A stretch of 51,883 bases of DNA from a virus. The DNA lies in the IMG/VR virus record IMGVR_UViG_3300002026_000042, positions 1 through 51,883 of that record; one strand, given 5' to 3'. Made by a program: the position numbers and the translations under genes. Every line of letters begins with the position of its first letter. The stretch's first letter is position 1. The notes under the pieces are model-generated. The model was not told the origin of the DNA, made no database searches, and saw nothing but the letters and a program-made list of their open reading frames with translations. Shown here one piece after another: positions 1 through 51,883 of the stretch.

Positions 1-179
1 TAAGTTATACAAACCTATACTTGTTTTGTCCTATGAGAAACGGTAAGTTTCTCATCTTGAACACCACAAAATTCATAGCATCCAAGTTTTTACAAAGACC
101 ATGAAAACACTTCTTAATCAACACGGTTGATTTCAAACAAAATGTTCTCATAACACCATCAACCTATTTCGCAACCCCT
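1..179. repeat. 192-bp intergenic direct repeat, copy A (51793..51805 + 1..179 across the circular junction)
   Basis: 1..179 aligns base-for-base with 16925..17103, with substitutions only at 9, 92 and 100. Carries two perfect palindromes: ATGAGAAAC-ggtaa-GTTTCTCAT (33..55) and AATCAAC-acg-GTTGATT (116..132). Ends next to the stop codon of the upstream gene (182..184). Confidence 0.9.
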
Positions 180-181
180 GA

Positions 182-1258
182 TTACGGGGCAACGAATCCA
201 CCAGTCGAGCTGGACATCAAGCAAGGAGGCTGTGCGATGTTGTTGTAGCAACGACCGCCCATGCCCTTGAGGTTGAACGCACGGTTGGTGACATCATTCT
301 GTCCCTTGACGCCGTAGTCATCCGACTCGATAACCGCAGCGGGAACCTCGATGTACACGTCGTTCGCGGAACCAGCAATCGTCACGCGCAGCCAAGTGTT
401 CGCGGCATACAGATACGGGTTCAGCAGCGACCCCGTGCCGTTAGGCCCAAGGATCGGATCGAACACGCCCTCTGGATGATACAGCGTGACAGCCCCAGAC
501 ACGGACATCGCACCCATAAGCACTGCCGTCGGCAAACGATTGCCATTACAGGTGTAAAGGATCGTCTGGTTCTGGGTCACATCGACATTCCATTCCACCG
601 TCTCCATGCCCGTCTGGGGAACCACCCCGCCGTTGAACGGCTCTGTCCAAGTACCCGTGAGCAACTGGGCGTTCGTCTTCCAGTAAGGAATCGGATCCAC
701 GTTGTTGCCACCAGGGTTCAGGGGGTTGGTGGTATTGAAGATCGAGCAGTCCGCGCCGTTCACACCCGTCTTCTGACGGATATACGAGTAGGCATCATAC
801 CCACCCGTGCCACCAGCAGGATTGACTTCGTCACGGTAAATCGCCACAAGACCAAGGGACGCAGTGACGAACGAGTCCTGAGAGGTGGAAAGACCCAGAC
901 TCGTATTCCACGCGCCTTCAAGGTCATAGTTGACCCCATACGCCGCACTCGTCCTGTACTGGTACACACGCGCTCCATCAGGGCTGATATCGAAAGACCG
1001 CCCATACGCCCGCTCCGTGATGCACCACTTGACAATGAAATCCCAGATAGAACCGCCAGCCCCAAGCTGCAACTCGGTTTCAACAGAACCCTCATACCGA
1101 ACCGCATTGTCCGCATAATGAGCCGACTCGGCGGCATTATACCAACCCGCGCCCCACACCGCGTTCGAGAAGATCGGTTCAAGCTGCAAGTTGACACTAG
1201 ATCCCGTACAAAGCATCAGCATCGGCCCCACAGCAGGCCCATCTTGGTACATTCTCAC
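182..1258 (-). CDS. virion structural protein candidate (358-aa ORF; true start uncertain, see intron candidate)
   Basis: Long minus-strand ORF at the distal end of the gene array. Gly/Asn/Thr/Val-rich beta-type composition, no catalytic motif. The GTG at 1258 and ATG at 1252 lack the GGAGG-type SD seen on neighbouring genes (only AAGG about 11 nt upstream). Confidence 0.6.
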   Translation of the reverse strand: MRMYQDGPAVGPMLMLCTGSSVNLQLEPIFSNAVWGAGWYNAAESAHYADNAVRYEGSVETELQLGAGGSIWDFIVKWCITERAYGRSFDISPDGARVYQYRTSAAYGVNYDLEGAWNTSLGLSTSQDSFVTASLGLVAIYRDEVNPAGGTGGYDAYSYIRQKTGVNGADCSIFNTTNPLNPGGNNVDPIPYWKTNAQLLTGTWTEPFNGGVVPQTGMETVEWNVDVTQNQTILYTCNGNRLPTAVLMGAMSVSGAVTLYHPEGVFDPILGPNGTGSLLNPYLYAANTWLRVTIAGSANDVYIEVPAAVIESDDYGVKGQNDVTNRAFNLKGMGGRCYNNIAQPPCLMSSSTGGFVAP

Positions 1259-3846: not shown

Positions 3847-4335
3847 CTATATCTCCTGCTCAGGCCACGCAGCAGGTTGAAGAGCTGGTGGCATTGTGCG
3901 ACTGACATTAGACTTGATGTCCTGACCATACATCCGATGGTCAAACTTGCGCAAGCTGAATATCTGACGCTTGGCCGTCTCCATGTACGTCTGCATCTGC
4001 TCCGTCATGTTCTGCGACAACTGCTGGAACTCGCTCATCAGCAACAGCCCCGCCGTCCAGTAAAGCGCAGCGTGCCGCAGGTCGCCGGGAAACACACGCA
4101 CGGTTTGACCATTAGGCATGACTTTGTTCATCGCCCTGATCGGGGTATGATACACCTCCCCCAGTATCCCGTCAATGTACCTATCCACCCGTTCCTGATA
4201 CCGATTAACCATCATCTGGTCTATCTTTGCCATCTTGCCAGCATCAATGTTCAGAACAGACAGCACGTCGCGTAGCTCTCCCCAGTCCCCTGAATAGTAG
4301 CTCTCGCCTGTTGTCGGTGATAGGTCAGCCATCAT
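3847..4335 (-). CDS. head-tail connector-like protein (Mu gp36/DUF1320-like pattern)
   Basis: 162 aa. The pattern ...RVDRYIDGILGEVYHTPI...GDLRHAALYWTAGLLLMSEF... resembles head-tail connector families. Motif-level call only. Confidence 0.35.
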   Translation of the reverse strand: MMADLSPTTGESYYSGDWGELRDVLSVLNIDAGKMAKIDQMMVNRYQERVDRYIDGILGEVYHTPIRAMNKVMPNGQTVRVFPGDLRHAALYWTAGLLLMSEFQQLSQNMTEQMQTYMETAKRQIFSLRKFDHRMYGQDIKSNVSRTMPPALQPAAWPEQEI

Positions 4336-5662: not shown

Positions 5663-5718
5663 AATCTTAACCCTCCTGACCCCCTATCACCATCAGGCAA
5701 CAAGTTTATACAAGAATA

Positions 5719-7568: not shown

Positions 7569-8360
7569 CTACTCCCCCTTCCCCGACTCAAGCGCAGCGA
7601 GGCGAGCTTTCAGCGCAGCGATCTCTGCGTCCTTGTCAGCAGCGGGAGTTGCCTTGGGTTTAGGGCCGGGTTTAGCAGCACCCTCGGTGCGTTTGCTCCC
7701 CGGCTTAGGCCCGGGCTTCCGCTTCGAGCTCTCCGCCGATGCGACCCGCGCAGCCCCCTCCTTCGGCCCGAACTGTTGCCCCGCGTTGCGCGATACCGTC
7801 TTTTCACCAACCGCCATGCCAAGACTATCATCATGGACAATCGGCATCTTTGCCTTGTTCGTCTCCTTGAGCCGAGCCCGTTCAGCAAGCGATGCAATAT
7901 CATTCTTCTTGTTAAGCTCCGCGATACGCTCCTCCACAGACTCGTCCCCGCGAATGATCTCCAGCTTGTGCCCCTCCGCCTTCTTACCTACCCGCGCCCG
8001 ATCCACAGCCGCCTGCTTGTTCTTGCCTATCTGCGTATCCTTGCAATCCACAGGCTCCATCAGATCCTCGTCGCAGTGGATGACTTTCATCTTCTCCGTT
8101 GCCCGCACAATCTTCTTTGCAGCACTCGCAGCCTGAATATCCCCAGCGATCTTCTCTGCAAGCTCCTTGTCGTAAGGAACCGATATGGGATTGGACTCAT
8201 ACCGACGATTCGCCATCTTCATGTGATCGTACTTTATCGTCCCTTTGTATTCCGTCCCGTTGATTAGCACCATGCCATCATTCACCTCTATCACCGACCC
8301 CCGATTAACCCCGACCCCGTCTAACGCCGCCTGCCGAACCACCAGCCACTTCTCACTCAT
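7569..8360 (-). CDS. hypothetical protein (263 aa), Lys/Pro-rich basic C-terminus
   Basis: Long ORF. C-terminal KRKPGPKPGSKRTEGAAKPGPKPK low-complexity tail followed by a coiled-coil segment. Confidence 0.6.
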   Translation of the reverse strand: MSEKWLVVRQAALDGVGVNRGSVIEVNDGMVLINGTEYKGTIKYDHMKMANRRYESNPISVPYDKELAEKIAGDIQAASAAKKIVRATEKMKVIHCDEDLMEPVDCKDTQIGKNKQAAVDRARVGKKAEGHKLEIIRGDESVEERIAELNKKNDIASLAERARLKETNKAKMPIVHDDSLGMAVGEKTVSRNAGQQFGPKEGAARVASAESSKRKPGPKPGSKRTEGAAKPGPKPKATPAADKDAEIAALKARLAALESGKGE

Positions 8361-8462
8361 CCCGTCCTCCTTGTTTTCATATTACCCACTACATAGTGGA
8401 AAAGCCAAAACGAAACTGCTACGGCTGGACGCCCAGCCATAGCATCACCGACAAACCACCAA

Positions 8463-9576: not shown

Positions 9577-9944
9577 TGGCGGAGGTGGCGGGAGTTGAAC
9601 CCGCGTCCGTGAAAGCCAGTCTTGAAAGCGTCTACGTGCATAGTCACTGTTTCTCGACATGTAACCCGTCTATTCAGTTCTTAGCTGACAAGCAGGGAGT
9701 TCTTTCAACACCCAAAGCCAGCGTTCTTAGCCGCCATCAATCTCTGTAATCGACACTACTGACACCTACCGAGACAATCTCGGTGCCTTCGTGCTGGTTG
9801 CTTACGCAGCCAGAGCAAAAGCTCTGGCACCAGGGAATGCAATTGAGTTATCAATTGACTTGTAACCGGCTATTAACGAGGCCAACCGGTCAACCTCGGC
9901 ACGCAACTCCCAACCCTCGACCCACGTCGAAACCAGTCACCCCC
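9577..9944 (-). ncRNA. ssrA: tmRNA (SsrA), full length
   Basis: 5' GGGGGTGACTGGTTTCGACGTGGG... and 3' ...GGACGCGGGTTCAACTCCCGCCACCTCCGCCA. Acceptor stem has a G3-U wobble, the T-arm is GCGGG-TTCAACT-CCCGC, and the terminus is CCA. The internal tag reading frame ends GCA TTC CCT GGT GCC AGA GCT TTT GCT CTG GCT GCG TAA (...AFPGARAFALAA-stop). A possible resume codon GCC follows UUAAUA. Confidence 0.9.
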
Positions 9945-11812: not shown

Positions 11813-11861
11813 ATCAAACCTCCTTACAACCCCCTATCACCAGAATGTCAAAAGTTTCTAC

Positions 11862-12980
11862 TCACCACTCAAGCAATATCAGCGACCTGAAAAGCTGCTC
11901 TATCCCCTTTTCATCCGCATCCCGTGGCAGCTTCGATTCCGCCTTGACCGTTTCAAGCTCCGCCATCCGCCGTTCCACGTCCGCCATAAGCGTTTCATAC
12001 GGAACGTTGCCAGCACGGATGTTCATCAGGTAGTCAAGCTCCGCCCCTGCAAAGCGCACAATCGGCTCACCCGTGCGCAGGATCGCCTCCCCCGACATCA
12101 ACAGCCTGATGCAGTGTAAAGCGTTTTTAGCGTCGTAGTCCACCACGCCTCGCTCCTGATCGACCCACCTGTTCTGGTTCCGATTCTTTACCCAGTCCCA
12201 GTACCCCGTCCATTGTGACACTGCCTTCTCGTACGCGTCCTCCGCATAGATAAGCAGCCCTATGAAGTACTTCTCATCCTCCAGCGAAATACTCCCGCAG
12301 ACAAGATTCCCGTCCCGAAACACGCCCTTCGAGGTTTTCTCGTCATCCCTGTAAAGCCTGTAGACGTCTTTGCCGTGTTCCAGCCCAGCCACCTTGCAGG
12401 CATCAAGCCGATACACCTGCCTGTTATACTCGCAGCCACTAAGCAGTTCCTGATACGGTACGGGACGGCAAGGCTGCTTCTTGTTGTTCATGTGTGACGC
12501 TGGGATGATCCAGCAGAAGTCCTCCCGTTTCGGTTTATCCTCTGGCATCGGGTTATTCACAAACTTGTTCTGACCCCTCATCTTTTTAATTTGTGCAAAT
12601 GCGTACCCTGAAAATGTGTGGAAAGCCTTCTGGGAAACGAACAGGCCCCTGTGCTTCAGGACATGATCCCAAGCGGGCGTCGTCTTCTTGATGCAATCAT
12701 CGGGCATGAATATAAGTTCGATTATGTTCGGGCTGGCATCCTTCGCCAGCGCAAAGAACTTCTCCAACTCATAATACTTGACGTCCTCTGGACTTTCCTG
12801 CCCCACCTCCGTCGGCAACTGCTTTGTCGTTATCCGATCAGACAACGGACGCAAAAACACGCCCCTATAGTCAAAGTCAGAATGATAACTATCCGTATCT
12901 ATTGCCGTTCCATACGCCCTTGACCCAGTCAACAGCTTACACATGATCATCCCAGACTTTTCCAACTGTTCTATATTCAT
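11862..12980 (-). CDS. RlaP-like nucleotidyltransferase (Pol-beta superfamily, COG3541/pfam10127-type)
   Basis: N-terminal LLTGSRAYGTAIDTDSYHSDFDYRGVF (GS-x-AYG...SD-x-D-x-RGV) followed by YELEKFFALAKDASPNIIELIF and GYAFAQIKKM, as in the RNA-repair-associated nucleotidyltransferase family. Confidence 0.6.
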   Translation of the reverse strand: MNIEQLEKSGMIMCKLLTGSRAYGTAIDTDSYHSDFDYRGVFLRPLSDRITTKQLPTEVGQESPEDVKYYELEKFFALAKDASPNIIELIFMPDDCIKKTTPAWDHVLKHRGLFVSQKAFHTFSGYAFAQIKKMRGQNKFVNNPMPEDKPKREDFCWIIPASHMNNKKQPCRPVPYQELLSGCEYNRQVYRLDACKVAGLEHGKDVYRLYRDDEKTSKGVFRDGNLVCGSISLEDEKYFIGLLIYAEDAYEKAVSQWTGYWDWVKNRNQNRWVDQERGVVDYDAKNALHCIRLLMSGEAILRTGEPIVRFAGAELDYLMNIRAGNVPYETLMADVERRMAELETVKAESKLPRDADEKGIEQLFRSLILLEW

Positions 12981-14025: not shown

Positions 14026-14077
14026 ATCACACCCCCCTTATTTCATTTCCTCCCTATCACCAGCCCCGCCAGATTTT

Positions 14078-15421
14078 CTACTTCACCAGCCCCCGCTCCG
14101 ACAACCTCTTTATCCCCACCTCTGGCAAATACCCCCACACGTTGCGTGCTGGCAGGTCATCCCAAGTGTATTGCTTGAAAAGCCTGTCCTTGTCAAACAG
14201 CGTTTCCAACGCCGCCAGCCGCCTCGTCGAGTTCCCCTCGCTCCAGAACTTCTTTGCCAAAGCCAGCTTCTCCACATTGGCAGAATCACTTTCCACGCCA
14301 CGCAAGACTATCGCCTCAAGGAAAATAGCAGACAGGCTTTCCACAATCCCACCGACCGTGACACGCAAATGTTCCCCAAGAGCAACATGCTGACGAACAG
14401 CCCCACCCATTTTCTCAACATCATCACGATGGTTTTTATACGACATCTTCCATATACCAGACGGGGTTGCAGGCATTGCCCTGAAGGGGGTGAAATGGAA
14501 TTGGACATCAGTCCTCTGGCACCCATTCCCAACAGCATCTACAGCCGCCTTCTTGCAAATCACCGAGAGTTCTCGAATATCGTCATCTGTTTCAGTTGGC
14601 AACCCGATAAGATTATATACCCGAACTGGATGCCTGATTGCGCTTCGTGTCAGCCCCATCAAAAAATCATACAACATCTCATTGCTGATCGGCTTGTTAA
14701 CCATTACCCGCAATCTTTCACTTGCCCCATCCAGTCCTACATTTCTAATATACCTTGGATAATCATCACTATTTTTCAAGTCAAAGTCAAAAAGAGTGAA
14801 CTCCTGATCTAACGAAAATGGATTATTCCCAGTCTTGCCCGACGACTGCCGCTGCCCTAGGTATTTCCTTGTCCAAGTGTAATGACAGAATGAACACTTG
14901 CGCTGGCACCCTATCGCCCCCTCCGTACACTCATTCCCCTTTGCATCCTTGAACGGCTCTGGATACGATTGGCCGACCTGCGCATAGATGTACTTGCGAT
15001 CCATGCTGAATGAATCACTGTAGCAAATCGACTCATGTTCAAACCGACCCCCAGAAAGCTCCGCCTCGATCAACGGGACAATCAGGTTCTCCGCCCTCCC
15101 ATAGACTGCCACATCAAAGAACGGAAGCAACGCCCGCACGTTGCAAACCCCGTGCCCGCCGACAATCACCCTAGGCTGCCTACCCTTCCACCGCAGCCGC
15201 TCTGCCAGAAAAGACCACCAATCGCACTGGCTCGTGATCGGAACCAGCAAAACCTTGTAGTCTGATACCGTCTCCATCCCCGCATACCCGACCTCAAACC
15301 CAGCCTTCTCAATCACATGCTTTACCAACTCCATCCCGAACCACCACCGCGTACAGTAGCTGTCAACAGCATAAGACGACTTGGCATACCCACCCTGAAT
15401 ATACACCGCAATGTCTTTCAC
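14078..15421 (-). CDS. radical SAM enzyme with N-terminal B12-binding-like (class B-type) domain
   Basis: CQRKCSFCHY is the CxxxCxxC [4Fe-4S]/SAM motif. It is preceded by a Rossmann-like segment (KVLLVPITSQCDWW...RVIVGGHGV). The likely GTG start at 15421 overlaps the ParB-like stop (GTGA). The start is uncertain; the track gives 15469. Confidence 0.75.
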   Translation of the reverse strand: MKDIAVYIQGGYAKSSYAVDSYCTRWWFGMELVKHVIEKAGFEVGYAGMETVSDYKVLLVPITSQCDWWSFLAERLRWKGRQPRVIVGGHGVCNVRALLPFFDVAVYGRAENLIVPLIEAELSGGRFEHESICYSDSFSMDRKYIYAQVGQSYPEPFKDAKGNECTEGAIGCQRKCSFCHYTWTRKYLGQRQSSGKTGNNPFSLDQEFTLFDFDLKNSDDYPRYIRNVGLDGASERLRVMVNKPISNEMLYDFLMGLTRSAIRHPVRVYNLIGLPTETDDDIRELSVICKKAAVDAVGNGCQRTDVQFHFTPFRAMPATPSGIWKMSYKNHRDDVEKMGGAVRQHVALGEHLRVTVGGIVESLSAIFLEAIVLRGVESDSANVEKLALAKKFWSEGNSTRRLAALETLFDKDRLFKQYTWDDLPARNVWGYLPEVGIKRLSERGLVK

Positions 15422-15948
15422 CTCTTCCCTTTCACCCCGAAAACAAAGCCACACTTGCCGCATGTACACTTGACCCGCTGTTCATCCTTCACAATGTCAG
15501 CAAGAAGATCGGAAATGTCCCCCACATCCCCGAGGCCGTCACGGATCATACTGCCGAAGTCCACCTTCAGCAACGCCTTGAACTCCTCGTCCATAACATC
15601 AAGACGCGCCGTGATTACATCCCAGTTCCATTCCGACCCCAACGCCACATCAGACGCACGGTTGTCCATCAGCCCGTACGCCATCGCCTCCTCATCCCCT
15701 ATGTCCAGACGAATCGCGGCAATCCGCTTCCACCCCAGCTTCCCCGCCGCCTCCAACAGCCCATGCCCAGCCCTGCAAATACCGTCACGATCAAGCACGA
15801 CTGGCTTTGTCTGACCGAACCGAGTCAAACTGCCGACCAGCATATCAACATTCGTATCAGAATGGATCTTGGAGTTTAACGGGTCTAGCGTTATCCCGTC
15901 GATAGGAACAATGAATCCATGCAAGCTCTCAACAATAACCTCTTTCAT
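15418..15948 (-). CDS. ParB/Srx-fold (ParB-like nuclease domain) protein with C-terminal zinc ribbon, copy 2
   Basis: ATG at 15948 after GGAGG. IVPIDGITLDPLNSKIHS...FGQTKPVVLDRDGICRAGHGLLEAAGKLGWKRIAAI is a ParB N-terminal domain pattern. C-terminal CTCGKCGF. Confidence 0.65.
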   Translation of the reverse strand: MKEVIVESLHGFIVPIDGITLDPLNSKIHSDTNVDMLVGSLTRFGQTKPVVLDRDGICRAGHGLLEAAGKLGWKRIAAIRLDIGDEEAMAYGLMDNRASDVALGSEWNWDVITARLDVMDEEFKALLKVDFGSMIRDGLGDVGDISDLLADIVKDEQRVKCTCGKCGFVFGVKGKR

Positions 15949-16504
15949 TCCTCCCCTCCATATCCTCGTCACCCGTACCCGTAGGCCACGGATTGTCATG
16001 CCCGCAGCGGGGACACCGCGCCAGCTTTTCCTTCTTGCCAGCCGCCTTCTTCTCTTTTTCCCCACTGGATGCCCCCATCCCCAACGCCTTTGCAAGCGAC
16101 GACTTCTCTGTATCCCCGATGCAAAGCAGGTCTAAGTCAAACGACCCCTTAATCCTCCCGACAATCTCCCGAACATTGTCCTCGTTCCACTCACTGCCTA
16201 TGTCTGCATCAGACGAACGATTGTCAATGATCTCGTATTCCTGAAACTGTTCCTCCGTCCAGTTCGGAAACACAGCAGCAATCTTGTCAGCCCCAAGCCG
16301 TTTCATCGCAGCGAACACCAGATTGCCAACCCGAACCACATTGTTCTTGTCAACAATCACGGGCCTCACCTGCCCGAACCTCTCTATGCTCGCCTTCAGC
16401 ACATTCAGGTTCTTTGCCGAATGAATCTTGACAACCGCTGGATTGTCTTGCAGCGTCGCCATATCCACGATCAAATCTTTCAACCCGTCCTGTATCTTTG
16501 CCAT
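15929..16504 (-). CDS. ParB/Srx-fold (ParB-like nuclease domain) protein with C-terminal zinc ribbon, copy 1
   Basis: KIHSAKNLNVLKASIERFGQVRPVIVDKNNVVRVGNLVFAAMKRLGADKIAAV is a ParB N-terminal domain pattern. C-terminal CPRCGH. Paralogous to the next gene. Confidence 0.65.
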   Translation of the reverse strand: MAKIQDGLKDLIVDMATLQDNPAVVKIHSAKNLNVLKASIERFGQVRPVIVDKNNVVRVGNLVFAAMKRLGADKIAAVFPNWTEEQFQEYEIIDNRSSDADIGSEWNEDNVREIVGRIKGSFDLDLLCIGDTEKSSLAKALGMGASSGEKEKKAAGKKEKLARCPRCGHDNPWPTGTGDEDMEGRNERGYC

Positions 16505-16514
16505 ACCCACACCC

Positions 16515-16817
16515 TTACCCCTCTACATTTTCAAGTTCATCCTGACAGTCATCGGGAAACTGAATCATGTTGTTTGCCACGAACCGCCTGACAGCATTGT
16601 CGGCATAGCACTCAAGCAGGCTTGGAACCTCCCTCGCCACATGCTCATACCAATAGCACTCATCCTTCACCGATTCCCCCTTGCCCCCAGACGCAGCCAT
16701 CGCAATCAGCATCCGCTCCGCCCACCGCAACCCATCCTCCGCATCCTCAAGCACCTCCTGCGCATTATGCTTGTGCAACCTAGGCATATACACCGACACC
16801 ACAGATCCATCACCCAT
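16515..16817 (-). CDS. hypothetical protein (100 aa)
   Basis: ATG at 16817 lies 6 nt after AAGGAGG. First gene downstream of repeat copy B. A TATAAT hexamer lies about 35 nt upstream. Confidence 0.6.
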   Translation of the reverse strand: MGDGSVVSVYMPRLHKHNAQEVLEDAEDGLRWAERMLIAMAASGGKGESVKDECYWYEHVAREVPSLLECYADNAVRRFVANNMIQFPDDCQDELENVEG

Positions 16818-16911
16818 AGCCACCCTCCTTGGTTCCTACCACCCATTATACGCCAAAGCCCCCGCCAAGAACTTACATTCCAAACGGAGGCTTTGCAACA
16901 ACCATTACAGG

Positions 16912-17103
16912 CAACCGTTCAAGTTAAGTTATGCAAACCTATACTTGTTTTGTCCTATGAGAAACGGTAAGTTTCTCATCTTGAACACCACAAAATTCAT
17001 AGCATCCAAGTTTTTGCAAAGACTATGAAAACACTTCTTAATCAACACGGTTGATTTCAAACAAAATGTTCTCATAACACCATCAACCTATTTCGCAACC
17101 CCT
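16912..17103. repeat. 192-bp intergenic direct repeat, copy B
   Basis: Matches 51793..51805 + 1..179 at 189 of 192 positions. Same palindromes at 16957..16979 and 17040..17056. Bounded by the stop of 17102..17893 and the leader of 16515..16817. Confidence 0.9.
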
Positions 17104-17893
17104 ACAGCATCCCCTTCTCGAAGCACCCCCCGATGTTCAAGTTGAACTTGGTATGCGGCTTGTCAACAAGGTCTATATCAGTGTAGTAGTCATCCGCGTC
17201 GGGCGTCTCCTGCCACCCCGCCCCACCACACTCCTGCCCCTTGTACTCCCCAGCCGTGAACACCACACGGTTCTTGCCAGCAGCCCCGTGAATCACACTG
17301 TCCTGATTCATCATCGTGCCAATATCGTTCAGGTGACTCTCCAGACTCTTCATCGTCGCCTCATCCTTGTGATGAACCATGACTGACTTTTCCGTCTTTT
17401 CCGTCAAGTCGGTGTCATCATGCAGGATCATAAAGCTCGGTTCCTTGCCCCCGTAATGCCCCACCGTCTCCGTGTACGGGATGTTGCGCTTCTCCAACTC
17501 CCCGCGCAACTGCAAATGCCGCTCGTGGAAGAACGGATCATCAGGCTCCATCTGCTTCTCCTTTGGATCCCTAGGATTACGACCTGCGGATAGAATGGAG
17601 AAATGACCCTTTGACAACACATTCTCCAGATCAACGCGTTTCAACTTACGGTGATACTTGTACCCTGACGCTTTGCCAGTCGCCTGCCCAGATGGCGGCT
17701 TTAATCCGTCGTCACCCATCCCGACGTCCTCGTTCGGCTTCTCCTCACTGTACTCGTACTCACCTTTTGAAACCTCCCGACGCCACGTATCCCTGTTCTC
17801 ATTCGGCGGCTCCCACTTCCCCCCGCCGCAAAGAACCCGCCGCGCAATACGTTCAGCCATCGCCACACGCTTATAAACATTTCCAATATCCAT
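17102..17893 (-). CDS. hypothetical protein (263 aa)
   Basis: ATG at 17893 preceded by GGAGGG. No confident motif. Confidence 0.6.
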   Translation of the reverse strand: MDIGNVYKRVAMAERIARRVLCGGGKWEPPNENRDTWRREVSKGEYEYSEEKPNEDVGMGDDGLKPPSGQATGKASGYKYHRKLKRVDLENVLSKGHFSILSAGRNPRDPKEKQMEPDDPFFHERHLQLRGELEKRNIPYTETVGHYGGKEPSFMILHDDTDLTEKTEKSVMVHHKDEATMKSLESHLNDIGTMMNQDSVIHGAAGKNRVVFTAGEYKGQECGGAGWQETPDADDYYTDIDLVDKPHTKFNLNIGGCFEKGML

Positions 17894-17959: not shown

Positions 17960-18238
17960 TCAATGATTGTTTCCACCGTTCACCGCCACGGGAGTCGCCT
18001 TGTGAACCACACGCCCATTGAACTTGACCCTGAATCCCCATTTTAGGTTTCCCGTGTCTTTCCCATCCACCTCAAGTTCCCTCAGTACCCTGCCAACTGG
18101 AACGATCCACTCTGGCGTCATATCATCAAAACACTTCTCAAGCCCGCTGTAATTAGACCCACGATTATTCATACTCCCCCATAACCTGCATTCGCCCGAA
18201 ATCAAGCACTCTTGCGACAAACAAAAATCGGCTCCCAC
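17960..18238 (-). CDS. hypothetical small protein (70-92 aa, start uncertain)
   Basis: The ORF overlaps the methyltransferase stop if started at 18238. An internal ATG at 18172 would avoid the overlap. Confidence 0.45.
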   Translation of the reverse strand: MGADFCLSQECLISGECRLWGSMNNRGSNYSGLEKCFDDMTPEWIVPVGRVLRELEVDGKDTGNLKWGFRVKFNGRVVHKATPVAVNGGNNH

Positions 18239-20151
18239 TTCTCGCCCCTCCCAAACAAAGAACTAGCCACAAGCCGATGCTCCTTGTAAATACCGTGCCC
18301 CGCCGTAAGATACATCCTAACGTCATCAGCGATATTGTGATCTACCACGTTGGCAATGTTAAGTGCAAAACACCCCCCAACAGACAAGTGCCGCATCGCC
18401 TTCTCTATCAGCGGAAACAGAAACAACTCCTTCCACGCCCCGTAATCCTTATAGCGAAACGCGCTTTGTCTGTCATCGCCCCCATACCACTCCGCATCGA
18501 AATAAGGGGGAGACGTGAATATGAAATCAAACAGCCCACCAACCTCGTAGTCCTCGAATGCCGTGTTGACTATTTTAACCTCTTTCCCATTCCCAACCTT
18601 TGCCGCAAGCCTGTTAAGCCCTGCAACTGTCTCTTTTTCAACCTCCACCCCAACATACTCACTTGCCGCAGAGCAACAAAACCCAAACAATCGTCCGCCC
18701 CACCCCGCACAGGGATCTAAAACGCGTCCCCCAGAAACACAATACCGATCAATTAAAGCCTTCGCAACAACTGGCCTGAAATTGTGAACTCCACCAAATG
18801 TTGCAAGCTCCGCCCGAACCGCAGAATCCGTCACCGACTTCCTATGCTTAATGCAGTCTGTTATCGCATGACGCAACAGCGAATCATCATCGAACACCGC
18901 TATCGGACTCAACTTGCCCTTGCGTTTCGCCGACCAGAACCCTTTGAAAAACGAAAGACACTCTGCACACCCCGCCGTATTGCCAGCAGGAATGTCCGTG
19001 TCAAACTCAAGCCTAGAACCAACAACAGACTGCACCGCCTTTGACACCCCTTCCGCCGTGCTATACGGAAATGAAAACCCAGCACGACGCAAGTGCGCAA
19101 ACACCGTATCGACCCACATGTCCACGTCGCAATCTACAGACAATACATCCCGAGACGCATCAAGCATTACACGCTGATGATTGCACGGGGTACCCCCGAG
19201 ACTAGGCGAAACCTTATACATCATACTTGGGTGCATATGGGGTTTTATCATTTCAAAGAACAGACCCTTGTTTTCAATCACAATGATAGATATGTCGTCC
19301 CGTTCGGCAACTTTAACGTCTAATCCTCGACCATCCATAAACCGCTTGATCCTATCAATATCCTCCCGACAGAATCCTGACGAAATCGTAGGCACCCCAT
19401 CCTTGCACCTGTCAGACAAATGCCCGTCATCCATGTACCAGACAGCAAGAGCCATAGGAGTTAGCATAATCTCAAAACCCACTGGCAACCGCTTCCCGCC
19501 GTCCCCGTAAAACATCTCCTTGAATGGTTGGAACACCCCATGAGAACAAGTATGAAACACATGCCCATAAGCAATCCGACCATCCTCCAGCAGCTTGTCC
19601 TCTCGCCTAATGCGCCCCGAGTACGGGAAAAACACCGCCTGCTTCCATTTCAAATAATCTAGCTGCTCTAAACAGTGCGACTCCTTATACCTTGACGTAC
19701 CCACGCCGCTTATCGCTAAATGTCCATCTCCCAATAATGACCCAAACAAAACGGCCTTCTGTTCTTCAGTCAATGACGATGGGTATGTTGCCTGATTTCG
19801 ATCCGACTTGCCAACCACAGGAATCCCGAACTCACCCCTAATCGTCTTGATCAACATCCTGCTACAACCAAACATCTTAGCCAGTTTGCTTTCTCCCGTT
19901 TGCCAATACATCTCTTCAAACTCACCACGGGTCAGACTGCGAATGTCACGCAGCCCAGAACGACAGGCCCGCCTCGATATCCGATCCCTTGCCGATATGG
20001 TTCCAATACCATATTTTCGACGATAATACGATACCGCGACATCACTTATTCCGTGTATGTCCCCAATCTCCCGATCAGACAATAATTGTTCAACATACAA
20101 CGACTCAATAACATCCTTTGTCAGATCATGCTCTTTATGCGTTTTCTTCAT
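18202..20151 (-). CDS. fusion ORF: two HTH repeats + double-motif LAGLIDADG homing endonuclease + SAM-dependent (SPPY) DNA methyltransferase
   Basis: ATG at 20151 lies 7 nt after AAGGAG. The upstream 63 tracked codons are intergenic and contain a promoter and terminator. HTH-like LSDREIGDIHGISDVAVSYYRRKYGI and ESKLAKMFGCSRMLIKTIRGEFGI. LAGLIDADG motifs LFGSLLGDGHL and LAVWYMDDGHL. Methyltransferase motif I RVLDPCAGWGGRLFG and motif IV FDFIFTSPPYF. Confidence 0.75.
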   Translation of the reverse strand: MKKTHKEHDLTKDVIESLYVEQLLSDREIGDIHGISDVAVSYYRRKYGIGTISARDRISRRACRSGLRDIRSLTRGEFEEMYWQTGESKLAKMFGCSRMLIKTIRGEFGIPVVGKSDRNQATYPSSLTEEQKAVLFGSLLGDGHLAISGVGTSRYKESHCLEQLDYLKWKQAVFFPYSGRIRREDKLLEDGRIAYGHVFHTCSHGVFQPFKEMFYGDGGKRLPVGFEIMLTPMALAVWYMDDGHLSDRCKDGVPTISSGFCREDIDRIKRFMDGRGLDVKVAERDDISIIVIENKGLFFEMIKPHMHPSMMYKVSPSLGGTPCNHQRVMLDASRDVLSVDCDVDMWVDTVFAHLRRAGFSFPYSTAEGVSKAVQSVVGSRLEFDTDIPAGNTAGCAECLSFFKGFWSAKRKGKLSPIAVFDDDSLLRHAITDCIKHRKSVTDSAVRAELATFGGVHNFRPVVAKALIDRYCVSGGRVLDPCAGWGGRLFGFCCSAASEYVGVEVEKETVAGLNRLAAKVGNGKEVKIVNTAFEDYEVGGLFDFIFTSPPYFDAEWYGGDDRQSAFRYKDYGAWKELFLFPLIEKAMRHLSVGGCFALNIANVVDHNIADDVRMYLTAGHGIYKEHRLVASSLFGRGEKWEPIFVCRKSA

Positions 20152-20181
20152 AAAATACTCCTTGTTAAACGTATAACTTGC

Positions 20182-20210
20182 ATTTAACCGAAAAACAATC
20201 GGCTTGTCAA
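20182..20210 (-). promoter_or_regulatory. sigma70-type promoter
   Basis: Minus strand TTGACA (20210..20205), a 17-nt spacer, then TTAAAT (20187..20182). Sits about 30 nt upstream of the ATG at 20151 and directly after the capsid terminator. Confidence 0.55.
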
Positions 20211-20291
20211 CTTGTATGTTTCCGAAAAACAAACAAGCAGTAAACCTAAACCAAAGAACACAAGAATAGTATTTCAGACTTTTGAAGAAAG

Positions 20292-20334
20292 CAAACAAAA
20301 ACAAAAAACCCTTGGGAGGTTTATTTCCCAAGGG
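20292..20334 (-). terminator. strong rho-independent terminator after the major capsid gene
   Basis: Minus strand CCCTTGGGA-aataaacc-TCCCAAGGG (9-bp perfect stem) followed by TTTTTTGTTTTTGTTTG. Confidence 0.85.
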
Positions 20335-20365
20335 TCTCAAACGCCTACATTACAGGCATTTACGC

Positions 20366-21229
20366 TTACGGACGCGTTATCTCTATTACTTGAAGTGCGA
20401 AGGGATTATAAGCGCCGATGCCGATTTGCTCGAAGATCGAGAAACCGATCAGACGGTTTTTCGGATCATCAGCAGACAGCACGGTCAGCTCCGTACGCAC
20501 AGGAATGCGACCGAAGAACTCGGGCTCGCCGCAAACGTACACGGTGCCTTCGGGCACGATACGCGACACGATCAGCTTGGCACCCCAGATGGTTGCCATC
20601 AGACCAGTCTTCAGCAGCACTGCCTGGGTCTCGATGTCGAGGGTATCCCGATCCCACTTGCGCAGGTCGGCATAGTCCTTGGCATTCAGGAACACAGAGG
20701 CGACACGCACGTCGGTACGCTCGATGTTGGCAAAAGCATCTGCCAGAGCGTTAGCCGTGAGGTTGCCCATGACGGGAATCACCGGGTTCGGGTTGGTCGG
20801 GTCAGCGGCCAGAGCGTCCATGACGGCGAAGGTCTTGCGATCCTCTTCCGCCTGAATCTCGGCTTTGCCCAGATCCACAGCACGTTCGATCAGATCGAAC
20901 CGACGCTGCTTGATCTCGGTGAGCTGGATCTCGGGGTTCGAGGCGATCTCGAACAGCGGGAACAGCACACGTTTCGGCTTGGCAACCGCGACGATGTTCT
21001 CCCCCTCTTCACCAACGACATACGCCGTGATGTTCGGGTCCTTATCGTAGATCGGCAGGGCTCCATCGGGCAACGCCTCGACAAAGAACGCCTTACGGCC
21101 TACGCTGGAATAGTCACGCCGACGGCGCAACGGCTGAATCATGCTTGCAGCCAAACGCTGACGCCCTGCGGCGGTGCGGATGTGCTGGGAAATGATCTGC
21201 TGACGGGTCTCATTAGTCATCTTGCTCAT
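20366..21229 (-). CDS. major capsid protein, HK97 fold (encapsulin-like, no delta domain)
   Basis: 287 aa. Pattern ...FPLFEIASNPEIQLTEIKQRRFDLIERAVDLGKAEIQAEEDRKTFAVMDAL...FLNAKDYADLRKWDRD...TGLMATIWGAKLIVSRIVPEGTVYVCGEPEFFGRIPVR... is typical of HK97-type coat and encapsulin shell proteins. Sits after scaffold-like genes and before the strongest terminator. Confidence 0.8.
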   Translation of the reverse strand: MSKMTNETRQQIISQHIRTAAGRQRLAASMIQPLRRRRDYSSVGRKAFFVEALPDGALPIYDKDPNITAYVVGEEGENIVAVAKPKRVLFPLFEIASNPEIQLTEIKQRRFDLIERAVDLGKAEIQAEEDRKTFAVMDALAADPTNPNPVIPVMGNLTANALADAFANIERTDVRVASVFLNAKDYADLRKWDRDTLDIETQAVLLKTGLMATIWGAKLIVSRIVPEGTVYVCGEPEFFGRIPVRTELTVLSADDPKNRLIGFSIFEQIGIGAYNPFALQVIEITRP

Positions 21230-33415: not shown

Positions 33416-34903
33416 TCACGCCTCCCATCGTTTCAAAAGTTCCCTCTCCGCCAGATCCTTGTCCAGCGGGATCCGTTTGACCGCAGCATCATCCATGATG
33501 TCCTGAACGATCCCCATAGCCCGCCCGACGTCCTTCCCAGGTTTGACCCCGAGAATACGCATGACGTCACGCCCGTCAAGAATAGGTTTCCCCCCGACTG
33601 GCGCGTCCTTGACCGCATCTTCAATCCGTTCCCGCAGATCAGGAATCTCGTTGTGCGACGGGATTGTCCCGAGTGAATCCGCCTCGGCCAGATCCAGAAC
33701 AGCATCCACCAGTTCCTCTCCCACCTCCCTAACAAACTTACGTATGGATTTTTCCGACACCCCTTCGTTCATCCGCCCGAGACTGTGTGGGCGCATGTGG
33801 TTTTCCACCAGTTTGCGAACCTTGCTGACCGCCGCGTTATCAAACTTCATCCGTCGCATCATTGCCTCAGCCATCTCCCCGCCCGCAACCTCGTGTCCGA
33901 TGAACTTGACGAACTCCCCGAACCGTTCCTGTGTTGCAGGTTTGCCGATGTCGTGAAGCAACGCCGCCATCTGCGACTCGACCCCCGGCTTCGCACCCTT
34001 CAGCACCATCAAGGTGTGTCTGAATACGTCCCCCTCTTGGTGCCATCCGCCTTTGTTCGTCTGCTCGACACCCTTGAGAGCTTCAACCTCTGGGAGAATA
34101 TGCTTCAGAAGACCGACCACGCTCATAGCCCGCACGGCCTGCGCCAGCTTCCCGATCTTCATCACCTTGACCAGCTCCTCCCTGACCCGCTCCGCCGACA
34201 CGATGGCGATCCTACCAGCGTTCGCCTTGACTATCTTCAGGACCGACAACGGAACCTTCCACCCGTATTTCGCTTGGAAACGAATAAGACGCATCATCCT
34301 TAGAGGATCGTCGCGAAGAATCTTGTTGAAGTCCACCCCCGGATGCCCCCTGAGAATCCCGTTCTGGATGTCCGAGACACTGGTTCCCGTGAGATCGACA
34401 AGCTCCCCGCTGGACAAGTCCTTCATCAGCATATTGACGGTGAAATCTCGACGCTCCACATCGTCCGCTATGCTTCCGGGAGTCGTGACCCGCTGTCTGC
34501 TATCCTCGTCTGGAAACGACTCTTTCTGAGAATCCGAAACCTCAAGCTCCCCGCCCTTTGTCTCGTAGACCTCCCCATCGAACTCTATGTCCTCCTTGAA
34601 CGTGATCTGCCAGATGGGATACCCCGCCCCAAGCTGCCGTGGAGTCGAGACCTCGTTACCGAACTGGTTCTTGATCCAGTGCGTGAACTCCTTTGCTCCT
34701 CCCTCCCCCTCCACGACTAGATCAAGGTCTTTCGCATCCAGTCCAAGTAGTTGATCCCGTACATATCCGCCGACCGCCATCACGCGACCCTTCCAAATGG
34801 AGCTAGGAAGAATTGCCTTCATCAGACGCTCTATCTCGGCCTCCGCAGACGACGCCTCCATATTCCTTGCAATCCTCAACAACTCACTCGCGATCTTGTT
34901 CAT
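33416..34903 (-). CDS. cca: class II tRNA nucleotidyltransferase (CCA-adding enzyme) with HD domain, preceded by shared leader
   Basis: AVGGYVRDQLLGLDAKDLDLVVEG (GGxVRD...DxD), RRDFTVN, DDPLRMMRLIRF, and HD motif ...H...LLHDIGKP. N-terminus MNKIASELLRIARNMEA. Confidence 0.85.
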   Translation of the reverse strand: MNKIASELLRIARNMEASSAEAEIERLMKAILPSSIWKGRVMAVGGYVRDQLLGLDAKDLDLVVEGEGGAKEFTHWIKNQFGNEVSTPRQLGAGYPIWQITFKEDIEFDGEVYETKGGELEVSDSQKESFPDEDSRQRVTTPGSIADDVERRDFTVNMLMKDLSSGELVDLTGTSVSDIQNGILRGHPGVDFNKILRDDPLRMMRLIRFQAKYGWKVPLSVLKIVKANAGRIAIVSAERVREELVKVMKIGKLAQAVRAMSVVGLLKHILPEVEALKGVEQTNKGGWHQEGDVFRHTLMVLKGAKPGVESQMAALLHDIGKPATQERFGEFVKFIGHEVAGGEMAEAMMRRMKFDNAAVSKVRKLVENHMRPHSLGRMNEGVSEKSIRKFVREVGEELVDAVLDLAEADSLGTIPSHNEIPDLRERIEDAVKDAPVGGKPILDGRDVMRILGVKPGKDVGRAMGIVQDIMDDAAVKRIPLDKDLAERELLKRWEA

Positions 34904-37900: not shown

Positions 37901-38711
37901 TGACAGGCTCCTTGCTGACCGACTTCGTCTCCTTGATCTGAGGGTTATCATAACGGGAAAGATTACGGCCCACGTTCTTCGTGAAGGTCTCAAGATCCGC
38001 CTTGTTGTAATCAGGCAACCCAGCACTCGCCGCACGCCCCGCCTCAATCGCCTTGTCAACCATTGCCTTCTGCTCTGGCGTCAAGTCCTTGACCTTTGCA
38101 GCCGTTCCATCAGGAAACCTGACAACCACATTCTTTGTCAACTGCGTCGGATGCAGCTTGTGCGCCTCCCACCCCTCACCAGCGGGGAATGCGGGGTGAT
38201 CCGTCACCGATACCTCTCGGTCAATCTTGTACGGCTTTTTCTTCTGATCTTCCTGCTGCTTAGGCTTCTGCTTATCCTTCTGATCGTCCTGCTGCTTAGC
38301 CTTCTCATCCTGTTCCTTGACGTGATGCAACGATCTATCAGCATCAGGATGTGCTTCCAGATAGGTGTCTATCTGATTCTTCGTGTCAAAGTCGATTGCG
38401 AAGCGACGGGAAGCGGTTGTCACCTGTGGGAGCAAGGATATAACGCCCTCCCCCTCATCTAGCTTCTTCCAGTCGATCTCCTCTTTATCCCCAGACGGAG
38501 CATCCCCTTTCGCCTCCTCGTCCCCAGCCTCTGGTTGTTCATTCCCGTCAGACTCGGGCGCAGCGGGTGTTTCAGACGATTCTCCCTCAGATGAATTAGG
38601 CTCTGGATCAGCCGTATCCTCGGACTCCCCGCCCGACTGCAACACCTCAAGCATCTTCTGCTTGATTTCATCTTTCAGCTTTTCGTCAACCGCCGCACGC
38701 CTTGTCATCAT
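34929..38711 (-). CDS. 1260-aa polyvalent-type protein: acidic N-terminus, HD phosphohydrolase domain, P-loop kinase (zeta-toxin/AAA_33-like) domain, C-terminal small domain
   Basis: HD: GDHGVRHVAG...MANHDIGYTMG (about 37500..37640). Walker A LFIGPAGSGKSW (about 36027..36056) followed by a D-x-TG Walker B-like segment. C-terminal HAEYRSDLRGL... resembles DUF4258-type small nuclease/toxin domains (weak). The ATG overlaps the portal stop (ATGA). Confidence 0.65.
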   Translation of the reverse strand: MMTRRAAVDEKLKDEIKQKMLEVLQSGGESEDTADPEPNSSEGESSETPAAPESDGNEQPEAGDEEAKGDAPSGDKEEIDWKKLDEGEGVISLLPQVTTASRRFAIDFDTKNQIDTYLEAHPDADRSLHHVKEQDEKAKQQDDQKDKQKPKQQEDQKKKPYKIDREVSVTDHPAFPAGEGWEAHKLHPTQLTKNVVVRFPDGTAAKVKDLTPEQKAMVDKAIEAGRAASAGLPDYNKADLETFTKNVGRNLSRYDNPQIKETKSVSKEPVSKENAKAFAGELKKNATSVIDKFAASLSDDARPRADKFVEHFASAVEEAANDGSLGDVSQEDLDEFLREDVKRMLHQEVEQRRRPIGDHGVRHVAGNCESAMQMMGQLSKTGSPINGIDKVMVMSVMANHDIGYTMGAIATDATKGSGHKDASVVAIGEETDRYAKLFGKDGFEKYKNLVTTHDAAEMDWDKEPVASAVRLADNTALFGTDKVQELFIRKPETMETVCKLRLAAEMEPPKPKEPEQAKFAKPEEYEAAVAKFKQDKEKYESPEVQEKVKKSKQMQDANKNALHEHIDGDNDIADVDKDLLHRQVSDMIEGKFSVSADVLSRYSGRLNSFEFDKANKMMNVNMTYSPDGEIVDSLFGDEVAERQFDKFTKDMKGKPVKGKTGSTQFSNKDGKAVTQLNIDGVDKSPVDSAATEVMKSFLKKTGRHDLRAAAKDIELGAPGAVAKARHSLSSVKEKMTEQEFRELMDSFDQDAGNPSQLASKLKQWPLFQSEMEYLTGKAASMSRRGARGLQVNRKDRDLISDTGGTSKKHTHDVEQRSPREDVKKPWRTKTKTDEQRDKDIDGDPDMKLSSIDRDPIIAALREMGVAGLCKVAGPQDIRWQAVLFIGPAGSGKSWLRSKRYMKYLNSKVVDPDEIKQAHPEYDSENPGKLHDLSKQISDAQYKQIVTSGTGDPVIVDGTGRDPRSIISKAQVARAEGYRIFLIYAWVPVEVSLFRNRNRPRFVPEDLILEQSKSIVKSFGVLKGIVDKYTVIPNYSSADLSEAKADLEVYPAPQAKRPPRPSDATYGLARAAAMPTKHRMPTDRNLGTRVHRDKSKFHKTKRQKDKADLRMTHEGRAFEAGIMDVLQKAKNRFTPDTLGKILEKLQRFVKTKSPADDLSNAEVKSIYGPYDYGQTLPMSKKRDVEVDWSSHAEYRSDLRGLNSKAVNESVRDWLSERLKTKGPDSKQVRMDLNPGTAVVDYDLRQNPAAADLITVWASRRG

Positions 38712-51377: not shown

Positions 51378-51725
51378 TTAACCCAGCTTTTTCAGGACAG
51401 CGATTGTCTCTGGATCCGTCACCTCTGGCTCGATTGGCCTATCCGACGACAGGACAATGTCAATCCGATGCGACTGTTTCATTATGATTTGCAGGTTTCG
51501 GATGATCGCAACATACGGAACTGGGCCATGCAACAGGCAATTCACCGTCTGGTCTGCCGCACCTGCTTGTTCATTGTGAAGCCCGATGATTGCAACCATG
51601 ATCCGATTGGCATCCACGTCAATTGTCTCAACCGTAGGCTCCGACGAAACCTCCACCACCGCATCATACGTCTCCCCATGATGCTCGTGCAACTTGTTAG
51701 ATGCACACACAAAAAGCGTCATCAT
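51378..51725 (-). CDS. hypothetical protein (115 aa), first gene downstream of repeat copy A
   Basis: ATG at 51725 lies 7 nt after AAGGAG. The tracked upstream extension to 51803 runs into the repeat. A TATAGT hexamer lies about 45 nt upstream. Confidence 0.55.
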   Translation of the reverse strand: MMTLFVCASNKLHEHHGETYDAVVEVSSEPTVETIDVDANRIMVAIIGLHNEQAGAADQTVNCLLHGPVPYVAIIRNLQIIMKQSHRIDIVLSSDRPIEPEVTDPETIAVLKKLG

Positions 51726-51792
51726 CCTGATTCTCCTTTGTTTAATAATATCGCACACGCGCCATCCCGCTGATGACACTATACGCCAACAC

Positions 51793-51883
51793 CAACCGTT
51801 CAAGTTAAGTTATACAAACCTATACTTGTTTTGTCCTATGAGAAACGGTAAGTTTCTCATCTTGAACACCACAAAATTCATAG
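51793..51883. repeat. 5' part of repeat copy A plus 78-bp window-end overlap (51806..51883 = 1..78)
   Basis: 51806..51883 is identical to 1..78, which indicates a circular or terminally redundant assembly. The repeat homology with copy B starts at 51793 (CAACCGTTCAAGTTAAGTTA). Confidence 0.9.

Follow-up and report, generated by a model that had tools for sequence, protein, structure and literature searches.

The 51,883-nt viral sequence IMGVR_UViG_3300002026_000042 of IMG/VR (positions 1 to 51,883 of the record; hereafter the window) has been read as a circular phage genome that carries two copies of a 192-bp repeat. The circle of 51.8 kb is an assembly artefact. The window is a contig of a de Bruijn graph and not a closed genome; it begins in one copy of a dispersed intergenic element of about 176-192 nt, ends in another and holds a third. 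The phage thus has at least three copies of this element, which we name R1, R2 and R3, and its genome amounts to at least about 110 kb. Taking topology and function together, we lean, at somewhat better than even confidence, towards a false circle, three or more copies in this larger genome, and an element that is a transcribed, non-coding intergenic cassette. The cassette is most likely either an RNA processing or stability signal or a tolerated selfish insertion, two possibilities that we regard as about equally likely.

The repeat itself is real. Direct comparison of positions 16912-17103 with the composite of 51793-51805 plus 1-179 reproduced the match described in the initial annotation, with 189 of 192 positions identical and both in the same orientation, and the identity breaks off sharply at both edges. 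The two perfect palindromes reported at that time were also recovered (aatcaac-acg-gttgatt at 17040-17056 and atgagaaac-ggtaa-gtttctcat at 16957-16979). Every credible gene of the window lies on the minus strand and the GC skew is negative throughout. We describe the element on this minus (sense) strand, whereas positions within the repeat are numbered from 0 to 191 on the plus strand.

The reading of the window as a circle of 51,805 bp, closed through a "copy B" made up of 51793-51805 plus 1-179, arose because its first 78 bases (1-78) equal its last 78 (51806-51883), and this overlap lies inside the repeat. Metagenome contigs were scanned for the 9-bp hairpin of the element, which led to JFJP01037489 (27.2 kb, L089) and JFJP01037338 (31.7 kb, L090). 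L089 starts with the base of window position 1 and L090 with the complement of window position 51883; past the repeat, the DNA of both is unrelated to the window. "Copy B" is the start of R2 fused to the end of R3 over the 78-bp overlap, not one physical copy. The proposed arcs of 16.9 and 34.9 kb are lost together with the circle, as the overlap is common to two contigs with other flanks and at least three copies of the element exist.

The positions of the contig ends are consistent with this origin. Contigs stop in the repeat at index 13 from the upstream-gene side and at index 90 from the downstream-gene side. The single-nucleotide polymorphism (SNP) that separates the window copy from the L089 copy lies at index 104 and the first downstream base that is unique at index -1; both end distances are therefore 92 (104-13+1 and 90+1+1). 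We infer from this fit a de Bruijn graph built with 92-mers. If the ends are set by 92-mers, every pair of ends of this kind has 78 bases in common, a length determined by the k-mer size together with the 104-nt stretch that R2 and R3 share. R1 (the former copy A) was assembled through because it carries two private SNPs 91 nt apart, one of which falls in every 92-mer. In other assemblies, made with different k, contigs likewise end one k-mer into the repeat, at 29-30 nt (Logan) or 141 nt (k141). It is the copies of the element that break the short-read assemblies and so give rise to the false circle.

In completeness calls based on direct terminal repeats, a contig can pass for circular if its two ends fall in copies of an internal repeat and so overlap. 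The window corresponds to such false "complete circular" contigs, whose ends in internal-repeat copies mimic a circle via their overlap, without any difference. The overlap of a closed circle or of a direct terminal repeat is unique and joins true genome neighbours; that of the window does neither, and the gene content of the window is not complete for this type of phage. No replication genes were recognised among the window proteins that were scanned (about 50 of about 60 open reading frames, ORFs).

The true junctions were found in other assemblies. R1 is read across in the independent assemblies L082, L086 and L106. For R2, the 356-aa gene (the 358-aa ORF of the window) is followed by the full 192-nt element and then by a gene termed X in three independent assemblies, namely L092/L102, L093/L103 and L104 (ENA ERZ2286667 NODE_35, 49.6 kb; JGI 3300028549, 25.1 kb; and JGI 3300028584). 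The element of L093 matches "copy B" at 192 of 192 positions. X is the gene after the repeat in L090, where it encodes 389 aa, and a 100% identical protein is present on several contigs; the genes past X encode 163, 240, 263, 222 and 2180 aa. X and its followers, a tail module with a tube-like gene and the 2180-aa protein, have no counterpart in the window. None of the five recorded contigs that carry this form of the element leads from the 358-aa gene through the element to g0, the gene that the circle would have placed there. In relatives, the homologue of the 358-aa gene is directly followed by that of X, at 12 nt in L001, at 10 nt in the 118-kb relative (L101) and adjacent in L047. From their sequences, the 358-aa gene and X are possibly paralogous relatives.

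Elimination and synteny assign the third junction, in which a 224-aa gene is followed by the element and then by g0. L089 and the window (51793..51883) overlap by 78 identical nt and differ in their upstream flank. In the 118-kb relative (L100; ENA ERZ27301260 k141_146902, 118,060 bp), homologues of the 124-aa and 224-aa genes of L089 lie directly upstream of homologues of g0, g1 to g7, TerL, g10, portal and g12, in window order, with 65 nt between the 224-aa and g0 homologues. Synteny of the g0 block also extends to L091.

Adding the two further contigs to the window gives a genome of at least 51.8 + 31.7 + 27.2, about 110 kb. NODE_35 and NODE_4104 of one assembly have nearly equal coverage (11.0 and 12.6), which fits a single genome, and contigs of relatives measure 72-202 kb. 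The closest database capsids belong to an uncultured 485-kb phage (68%), to Tunturiibacter phage Tunturi_5 (309 kb) and to Bacillus phage G (498 kb); with this capsid of the phage G type, the phage counts among the relatives of huge phages. Conservation of the major capsid protein is also unusually high, at 86-100% in about 60 IMG/VR contigs whose other proteins share only 35-75%. GTDB genomes searched with the capsid for a prophage or host gave none. The coordinates of all features are collected in Table 1.

Table 1. Positions of the element copies, their predicted hairpins and the surrounding genes in the window (aa, amino acids; SD, Shine-Dalgarno sequence).
Feature	Position	Strand	Description
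R1	16912..17103	-	between g32 and g34; sole complete copy in the window
R2, 5' part	1..179	-	first 179 nt in transcription sense, joined to the stop of the 358-aa gene; true continuation is X, not g0
R3, 3' part	51793..51883	-	last 91 nt, joined to the g0 leader; upstream half on JFJP01037489 (L089), after the 224-aa gene
78-bp terminal overlap	51806..51883		assembly-graph node within the repeat; neither genome terminus nor proof of circularity
H1	17024..17076	-	predicted; 14-bp outer stem, internal loop and 7-bp AAUCAAC/GUUGAUU hairpin at 17040-17056
H2	16980..17010	-	predicted; 14 bp with several G-U pairs; sense-specific, not in the opposite-strand fold
H3	16957..16979	-	perfect 9-bp palindrome AUGAGAAAC-uuacc-GUUUCUCAU, without U-tract
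H4	16920..16947	-	predicted 3' hairpin; SNP s3 in loop
g32	17102..17893	-	263 aa, no assigned function; TAG stop shares 2 nt with R1
g34	16515..16823	-	100-102 aa; first gene past R1; 90-nt leader with TTGGCGTATAATG (16844-16856) and SD AAGGAGG
358-aa gene (g62)	182..1258	-	weakly similar to X; TAA 2 nt before R2
g0	51378..51734	-	118 aa; heads the g0-g7 / TerL / portal block; preceded by TTGGCGTATAGTG (51777-51789), 3 nt past the end of R3
TerL	44007-47144	-	1045 aa
Portal	38708-42835	-	1375 aa; Hint/intein and LAGLIDADG domains
CCA-adding tRNA nucleotidyltransferase	33416-34903	-	with HD domain
Major capsid	20366-21229	-	at least 90% identical in IMG/VR contigs up to 202 kb
Large ORF right after the capsid gene	18202-20340	-	649-712 aa depending on start codon; LAGLIDADG_2 domain with HNH-like and unassigned regions
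ParB-like protein	15929-16510	-	ParB_N Pfam match of 20.3 bits, under the 26.3 cut-off
Radical-SAM-like protein	14078-15469	-	
RlaP-type nucleotidyltransferase	11862-12980	-	
Transfer-messenger RNA (tmRNA) gene	9577-9944	-	Rfam RF00023, 130 bits; ARAGORN tag peptide AGYKSIDNSIAFPGARAFALAA

All copies are placed in the same manner. The earlier observation that the repeat directly follows a gene stop holds for each of them, with 0-2 nt from the stop codon to the start of the element: the TAG that ends g32 and the one that ends the 224-aa gene run into its first bases, and 2 nt separate R2 from the TAA of the 358-aa gene. From the end of the element to the next start there are 7 nt in the case of the X ATG, about 90 nt for g34 and about 60 nt for g0. 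The direction of the element is that of transcription in every copy. It measures 192 nt in R1 and R2 and about 176-177 nt in R3, in which about 15 nt are missing near the 5' end, and its GC content is 35% as opposed to 52% for the genome. Contigs of about 14 independent datasets, all of one phage species, carry the element at these same sites. The description of a repeated, oriented and hairpin-rich intergenic cassette on the transcribed strand was correct.

R2 splits two genes that open the tail module and have only 10-12 nt between them in relatives. R2 thus lies inside a tail operon, and to reach the tail genes downstream, transcription must either cross it or start in it. A sigma-70 promoter scan of 16400-17500 gave 0 sites against 1.2 expected by chance, which leaves the promoter hexamers proposed in the initial annotation without backing; one of them, the candidate -35 TTGCGA, is moreover deleted in R3. 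Read-through is the simpler reading, because no promoter was detected and the candidate -35 is dispensable in R3. The scan for intrinsic terminators in and around the element also gave 0 sites, in agreement with the earlier remark that hairpins without a U-tract form no ordinary terminator. Across the window, the counts of promoter and terminator scans match chance; canonical terminators are present elsewhere, at 6970-6941, 8444-8417 and 9538-9516, the last of which follows the tmRNA gene.

The promoters of g34 and g0 appear to lie downstream of the element and not inside it. This is suggested by the -10-like 13-mer TTGGCGTATArTG, which occurs on the minus strand exactly twice in the window, at 16844-16856 (57 nt past R1) and at 51777-51789 (3 nt past R3), and has a counterpart in L100, where GGGGTATAAGT is found at the matching place in the 65-nt spacer before the g0 homologue.

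A second motif, GTAGAAnnnTT-N9-10-TGGTGATAGGGGGT, occurs on the minus strand at 5679-5712, 11829-11862 and 14049-14082, in each case 10-25 nt ahead of the SD of a gene. L100 has it too, at 2152-2200 and 8330-8378, although the proteins of this relative are only 35-79% identical. Its probable role is that of a promoter specific to this family. At its 5' end, the element resembles this motif only loosely, with wrong spacing, and differs again in R3. A promoter of the Bacteroidetes type (TAnnTTTG at GTATAGGTTTG) was also considered and set aside, since a TTTG box is missing at -33 and a strong AGGAGG SD precedes every gene.

If the element is transcribed, its sense RNA is predicted to fold into four hairpins (H1 to H4) with a minimum free energy (MFE) of -52.9 kcal/mol and a z-score of -3.68; one of 200 shuffled sequences folded as well. 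The same hairpins are kept when 50-nt flanks are added (z -4.07). The antisense strand folds less stably (-30.6 kcal/mol, z -2.32), since the G-U pairs on which H1 and H2 depend are not available to it. H1 is retained with flanks, in all SNP variants and in R3. The three SNPs between copies are all neutral to the fold, as they change an A-U to a G-U pair, a G-C to a G-U pair and one loop base. In Rfam, only the tmRNA of the window passes the gathering score; the best matches of the element reach 13-17 bits with E values of 0.6-9.6 (reported up to 10).

The preference for the sense strand also bears on the idea that the element is a site on DNA to which a protein binds, such as a parS-like centromere for a ParB-like protein, a pac site or an origin. 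The two perfect palindromes would suit such a site, and a ParB-like protein is encoded two genes downstream of R1. Yet most of the predicted structure needs G-U pairs, which are possible in the sense RNA only, and the half-sites GAAAC...GTTTC are oriented opposite to the chromosomal parS consensus. The ParB_N match is under the Pfam threshold, the best PHROG matches of this protein include nuclease and methyltransferase families, and a ParA was not found. The initial annotation had placed two ParB-like proteins downstream of copy B; we find only this single sub-threshold candidate, and it lies downstream of copy A. Relatives that have the ParB-like and terminase genes are without the element. 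None of the parS, pac and ori roles gained positive evidence. We regard this explanation as highly improbable.

Similarly remote is the possibility that the element is a small gene, in which a 48-codon ORF (17075-16929; 151-5) would encode a basic peptide in three copies. Gene callers annotated this ORF in several assemblies, and it is intact in every copy including R3. However, it has no SD, whereas the genes of this genome have a strong AGGAGG, and in the MFE fold its ATG is hidden in the H1 stem. Two of the three SNPs are nonsynonymous and one is synonymous, the GC content of 35% also speaks against a gene, and among 5.8 billion proteins no homologue was found beyond its own cluster.

The distribution of the element is narrow. 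Conservation in related genomes, proposed earlier as a check, was not seen: searches with blastn and nhmmer against 81 loci of relatives found homologues in the same phage species only. Exact-pattern scans with the 9-bp hairpin and the H1 core gave 0 matches in IMG/VR, an exact-pattern scan of GTDB genomes also gave 0, and blastn of the element and its flanks against INPHARED phages gave no match. The element is thus known in three contexts, all of one phage species, with the other databases covered by exact-pattern or blastn searches. The literature on intergenic repeats of jumbo phages, and that on JFJP01 and SRR931091, yielded nothing useful. In relatives, each of the three junctions is short and has no element in it. 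Homologues of g32 in L056, L007 and L019 are directly followed by the next gene without the element, and the spacings at the other two junctions are the 10-12 nt (358-aa gene and X) and 65 nt (224-aa gene and g0) given above. Since the element is absent from all three junctions in relatives and no homologue was found, it is best described as a lineage-specific insertion at three places.

Such a distribution would be expected of a selfish or neutral insertion, that is, a non-autonomous mobile or duplicated DNA that spread to three intergenic sites and is tolerated since transcription continues. The empty junctions, the foreign-looking composition (35% against 52% GC) and a conservation no better than that of the flanks all agree with it, and the genome contains other selfish elements (the portal intein, an apparent TerL intein and the LAGLIDADG ORF). 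Against it, both terminal inverted repeats and a target-site duplication are absent: the ends AGGGGTTGCG... and ...GAACGGTTG are not inverted copies, and no duplication is common to the flanks of R1, R2 and R3. Moreover, no transposase or endonuclease is linked to it, no searched host genome or other phage holds a copy, only three copies are known, and the strong sense-strand-specific fold would be left unexplained. We consider a purely selfish or neutral origin possible but doubtful.

Variation among the copies may reflect exchange between them. In the order s1, s2 and s3 (sense strand), the SNPs read A, C, C in R1 of the window and of L086, G, C, C in R1 of L082 and G, C, T in R1 of L106. 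R2 has G, T, T in the window and L093 and G, C, T in L092 and L104, while R3 of L089 has G, C, T. These shuffled states suggest gene conversion between copies, or else mixing by the assemblers. Two contigs lead from g32 through the element to X, L097 (JGI 3300033508) and L105 (JGI 3300028584), with different SNP patterns (A, C, T and G, T, T, respectively). They could be recombinants of R1 and R2 that lost the 16.7 kb between them, or assembly chimeras. The earlier suggestion of recombination between copies is thus plausible in view of the shuffled SNPs and these contigs, but its outcome of two circles does not hold, as the 358-aa gene leads to X in three assemblies and never to g0. Furthermore, the homology of L106 (ENA ERZ27248450 k141_109358, 3917-4206) to the window ends exactly past the g34 SD (window 16823 downward). 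Beyond this point L106 has AT-rich replacement genes, one with an SGGKDS motif that by eye resembles a PP-loop ATPase, which means that R1 and the 90-nt leader adjoin a strain-variable cassette.

These observations recall the PeSL (promoter-early stem-loop) cassettes of T4-type phages. In PeSLs, a consensus sigma-70 promoter is combined with a functional terminator; a genome contains about 50 of these short cassettes, which are alike only at motif level (Arbiol et al., 2010, PMC2839356; Comeau et al., 2014, PMC4122927). Direct copies of PeSLs can recombine and thereby delete or circularise the intervening DNA (PMC2839356; PMC4122927). A cassette of this kind would act as promoter and insulator, end the upstream unit and start the next, and mediate the exchange of downstream modules by its homology. 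The element is likewise a repeated intergenic stem-loop cassette of a large phage, and it runs from the upstream stop codon toward the next SD as PeSLs do (PMC2839356). PeSLs lie at the borders of variable gene blocks, and R1 adjoins the variable cassette seen in L106, TTGGCGTATArTG follows both R1 and R3, and the contigs L097 and L105 could be recombinants. The element nevertheless departs from PeSLs in that the scans matched neither a sigma-70-type promoter nor a terminator within it. Its four predicted hairpins are stable and without a U-tract, and strong termination is unlikely with R2 in the tail operon. The -35 proposed earlier is deleted in R3, and no -10-like motif lies between R2 and X although R2 sits inside that operon. 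Instead of some 50 short copies, there are three known ones of 192 nt at 98-100% identity, one of them inside the conserved tail operon. A PeSL-like function is on these grounds quite unlikely. An integron attC-like site was also rejected: the core boxes are unlike GTTRRRY, an integrase is absent and the "cassettes" would be 17-59 kb in length.

Other known systems offer partial parallels. The RNase III sites of T7 are single hairpins of about 60 nt that are loosely similar to each other and for which cleavage has been shown. As in T7, the element is intergenic in a genome transcribed in one direction, has a predicted interrupted helix of about 20 bp (H1) and no terminator match, and it would likewise be read through. 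It differs by its four predicted hairpins and near-identical copies. The put sites of HK022 and the nut sites of lambda directly follow early promoters and are built as a defined two-stem or boxA/boxB structure. They would share with the element that both are duplicated structured RNA elements acting in cis in phage operons where the polymerase reads on, whereas the element shows no visible boxA/boxB, no promoter upstream of R2 and no Rfam match. The NusG-like and sigma-like partners proposed for such a role were not recovered: a scan of 20 flanking proteins gave no NusG/KOW domain, and the sole sigma-like signal is a sub-threshold Sigma70_r4_2 match (E 0.002), which falls in the 186-aa protein encoded directly before TerL, in the place expected for the small terminase subunit. 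Bacterial repeats such as REP/BIME, ERIC, Correia and RUP are present in tens to hundreds of chromosomal copies, and many have TA duplications and inverted repeats at their ends. They influence the stability or processing of mRNAs and favour recombination. Like these and miniature inverted-repeat elements (MITEs), the element is a palindrome-rich intergenic repeat of 100-200 nt that would be co-transcribed with the flanking genes, but it occurs in one phage species in three known copies, without inverted ends or TA duplications. In sum, it lacks the promoter match and copy number of a PeSL, the inverted ends and target duplication of a MITE, the features of parS, a match in Rfam and the start signal and homologues of a 48-aa gene. 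By analogy, its mode of action would be closest to that of intergenic cassettes for punctuation or recombination, such as PeSLs, the RNase III sites of T7 or REP/ERIC repeats.

For the transcribed non-coding cassette that we favour, the following mechanism can be proposed. RNA polymerase would read through the element within long one-strand transcripts, and the element, as part of the mRNA, would fold into four hairpins. Between the genes, these may direct the processing or set the stability of the transcript, for example as an RNase III-type site; the interrupted helix of H1 (14+7 bp) has the predicted geometry of an RNase III substrate. Alternatively, the element may be a tolerated selfish insertion of no benefit to the phage. 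In either case, the directly repeated copies would provide homology for recombination or gene conversion.

Several points weigh against this interpretation. The common assembly origin of the window and the JFJP01 contigs is deduced from their identical contig ends. No contig spans R3, and the join of the 224-aa gene, R3 and g0 is drawn from the 78-nt overlap together with elimination and synteny. A promoter of a type other than sigma-70 could still reside in the element. Three structure-neutral SNPs are expected by chance at about 30% and give only a hint, the near-identical copies show no covariation, and an RNA role leans on the predicted fold. Finally, the element diverges between strains by 0-1.6% as compared with 0.4-1.0% in the flanks, which is no sign of purifying selection.

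In transcription order, the window leads from the end of R3 through g0-g7, TerL, portal and a polyvalent Zeta-toxin/AAA protein to the CCA-adding enzyme, SprT-like and ferritin-like proteins, prohead protease, major capsid, the LAGLIDADG ORF, g31, g32 and R1. These are followed by g34, the ParB-like and radical-SAM-like proteins, the RlaP nucleotidyltransferase, the tmRNA, the conserved block g45-g62 and the start of R2. The portal and TerL genes both appear to hold inteins, because their homologues in the 118-kb relative have only 645 and 601 aa, respectively. The large LAGLIDADG_2 ORF has partial homologues in several relatives. A set of RNA-repair and translation genes such as the CCA-adding enzyme, the RlaP-type nucleotidyltransferase, the radical-SAM-like protein and tmRNA is typical of very large phages.

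Altogether, the correction of the topology is the most useful outcome of this analysis. What appeared to be a complete circular phage of 51.8 kb represents no more than about half of its genome, which measures at least 110 kb and belongs to the lineage of phage G and the huge phages known from metagenomes. When completeness is called by end overlap, a dispersed repeat longer than k can mislead the call, and statistics of gene content or genome size drawn from such "complete" genomes would be wrong. As it stands, the element is a modest curiosity confined to one uncultivated phage species, though a clean and recent case in which a structured intergenic cassette has been inserted into a large phage at three operon positions. 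We also entertain, as an unlikely option, that it is a new phage-borne, non-autonomous RNA/DNA cassette that copies itself precisely between a stop and the next start without inverted ends or target duplication, whose sense RNA with its four hairpins is a processing or anti-termination signal and whose copies drive module exchange in relatives of huge phages. Should the element be cleaved or change read-through, it would offer a simple model for the punctuation of very long one-strand transcripts and for repeat-driven module shuffling.

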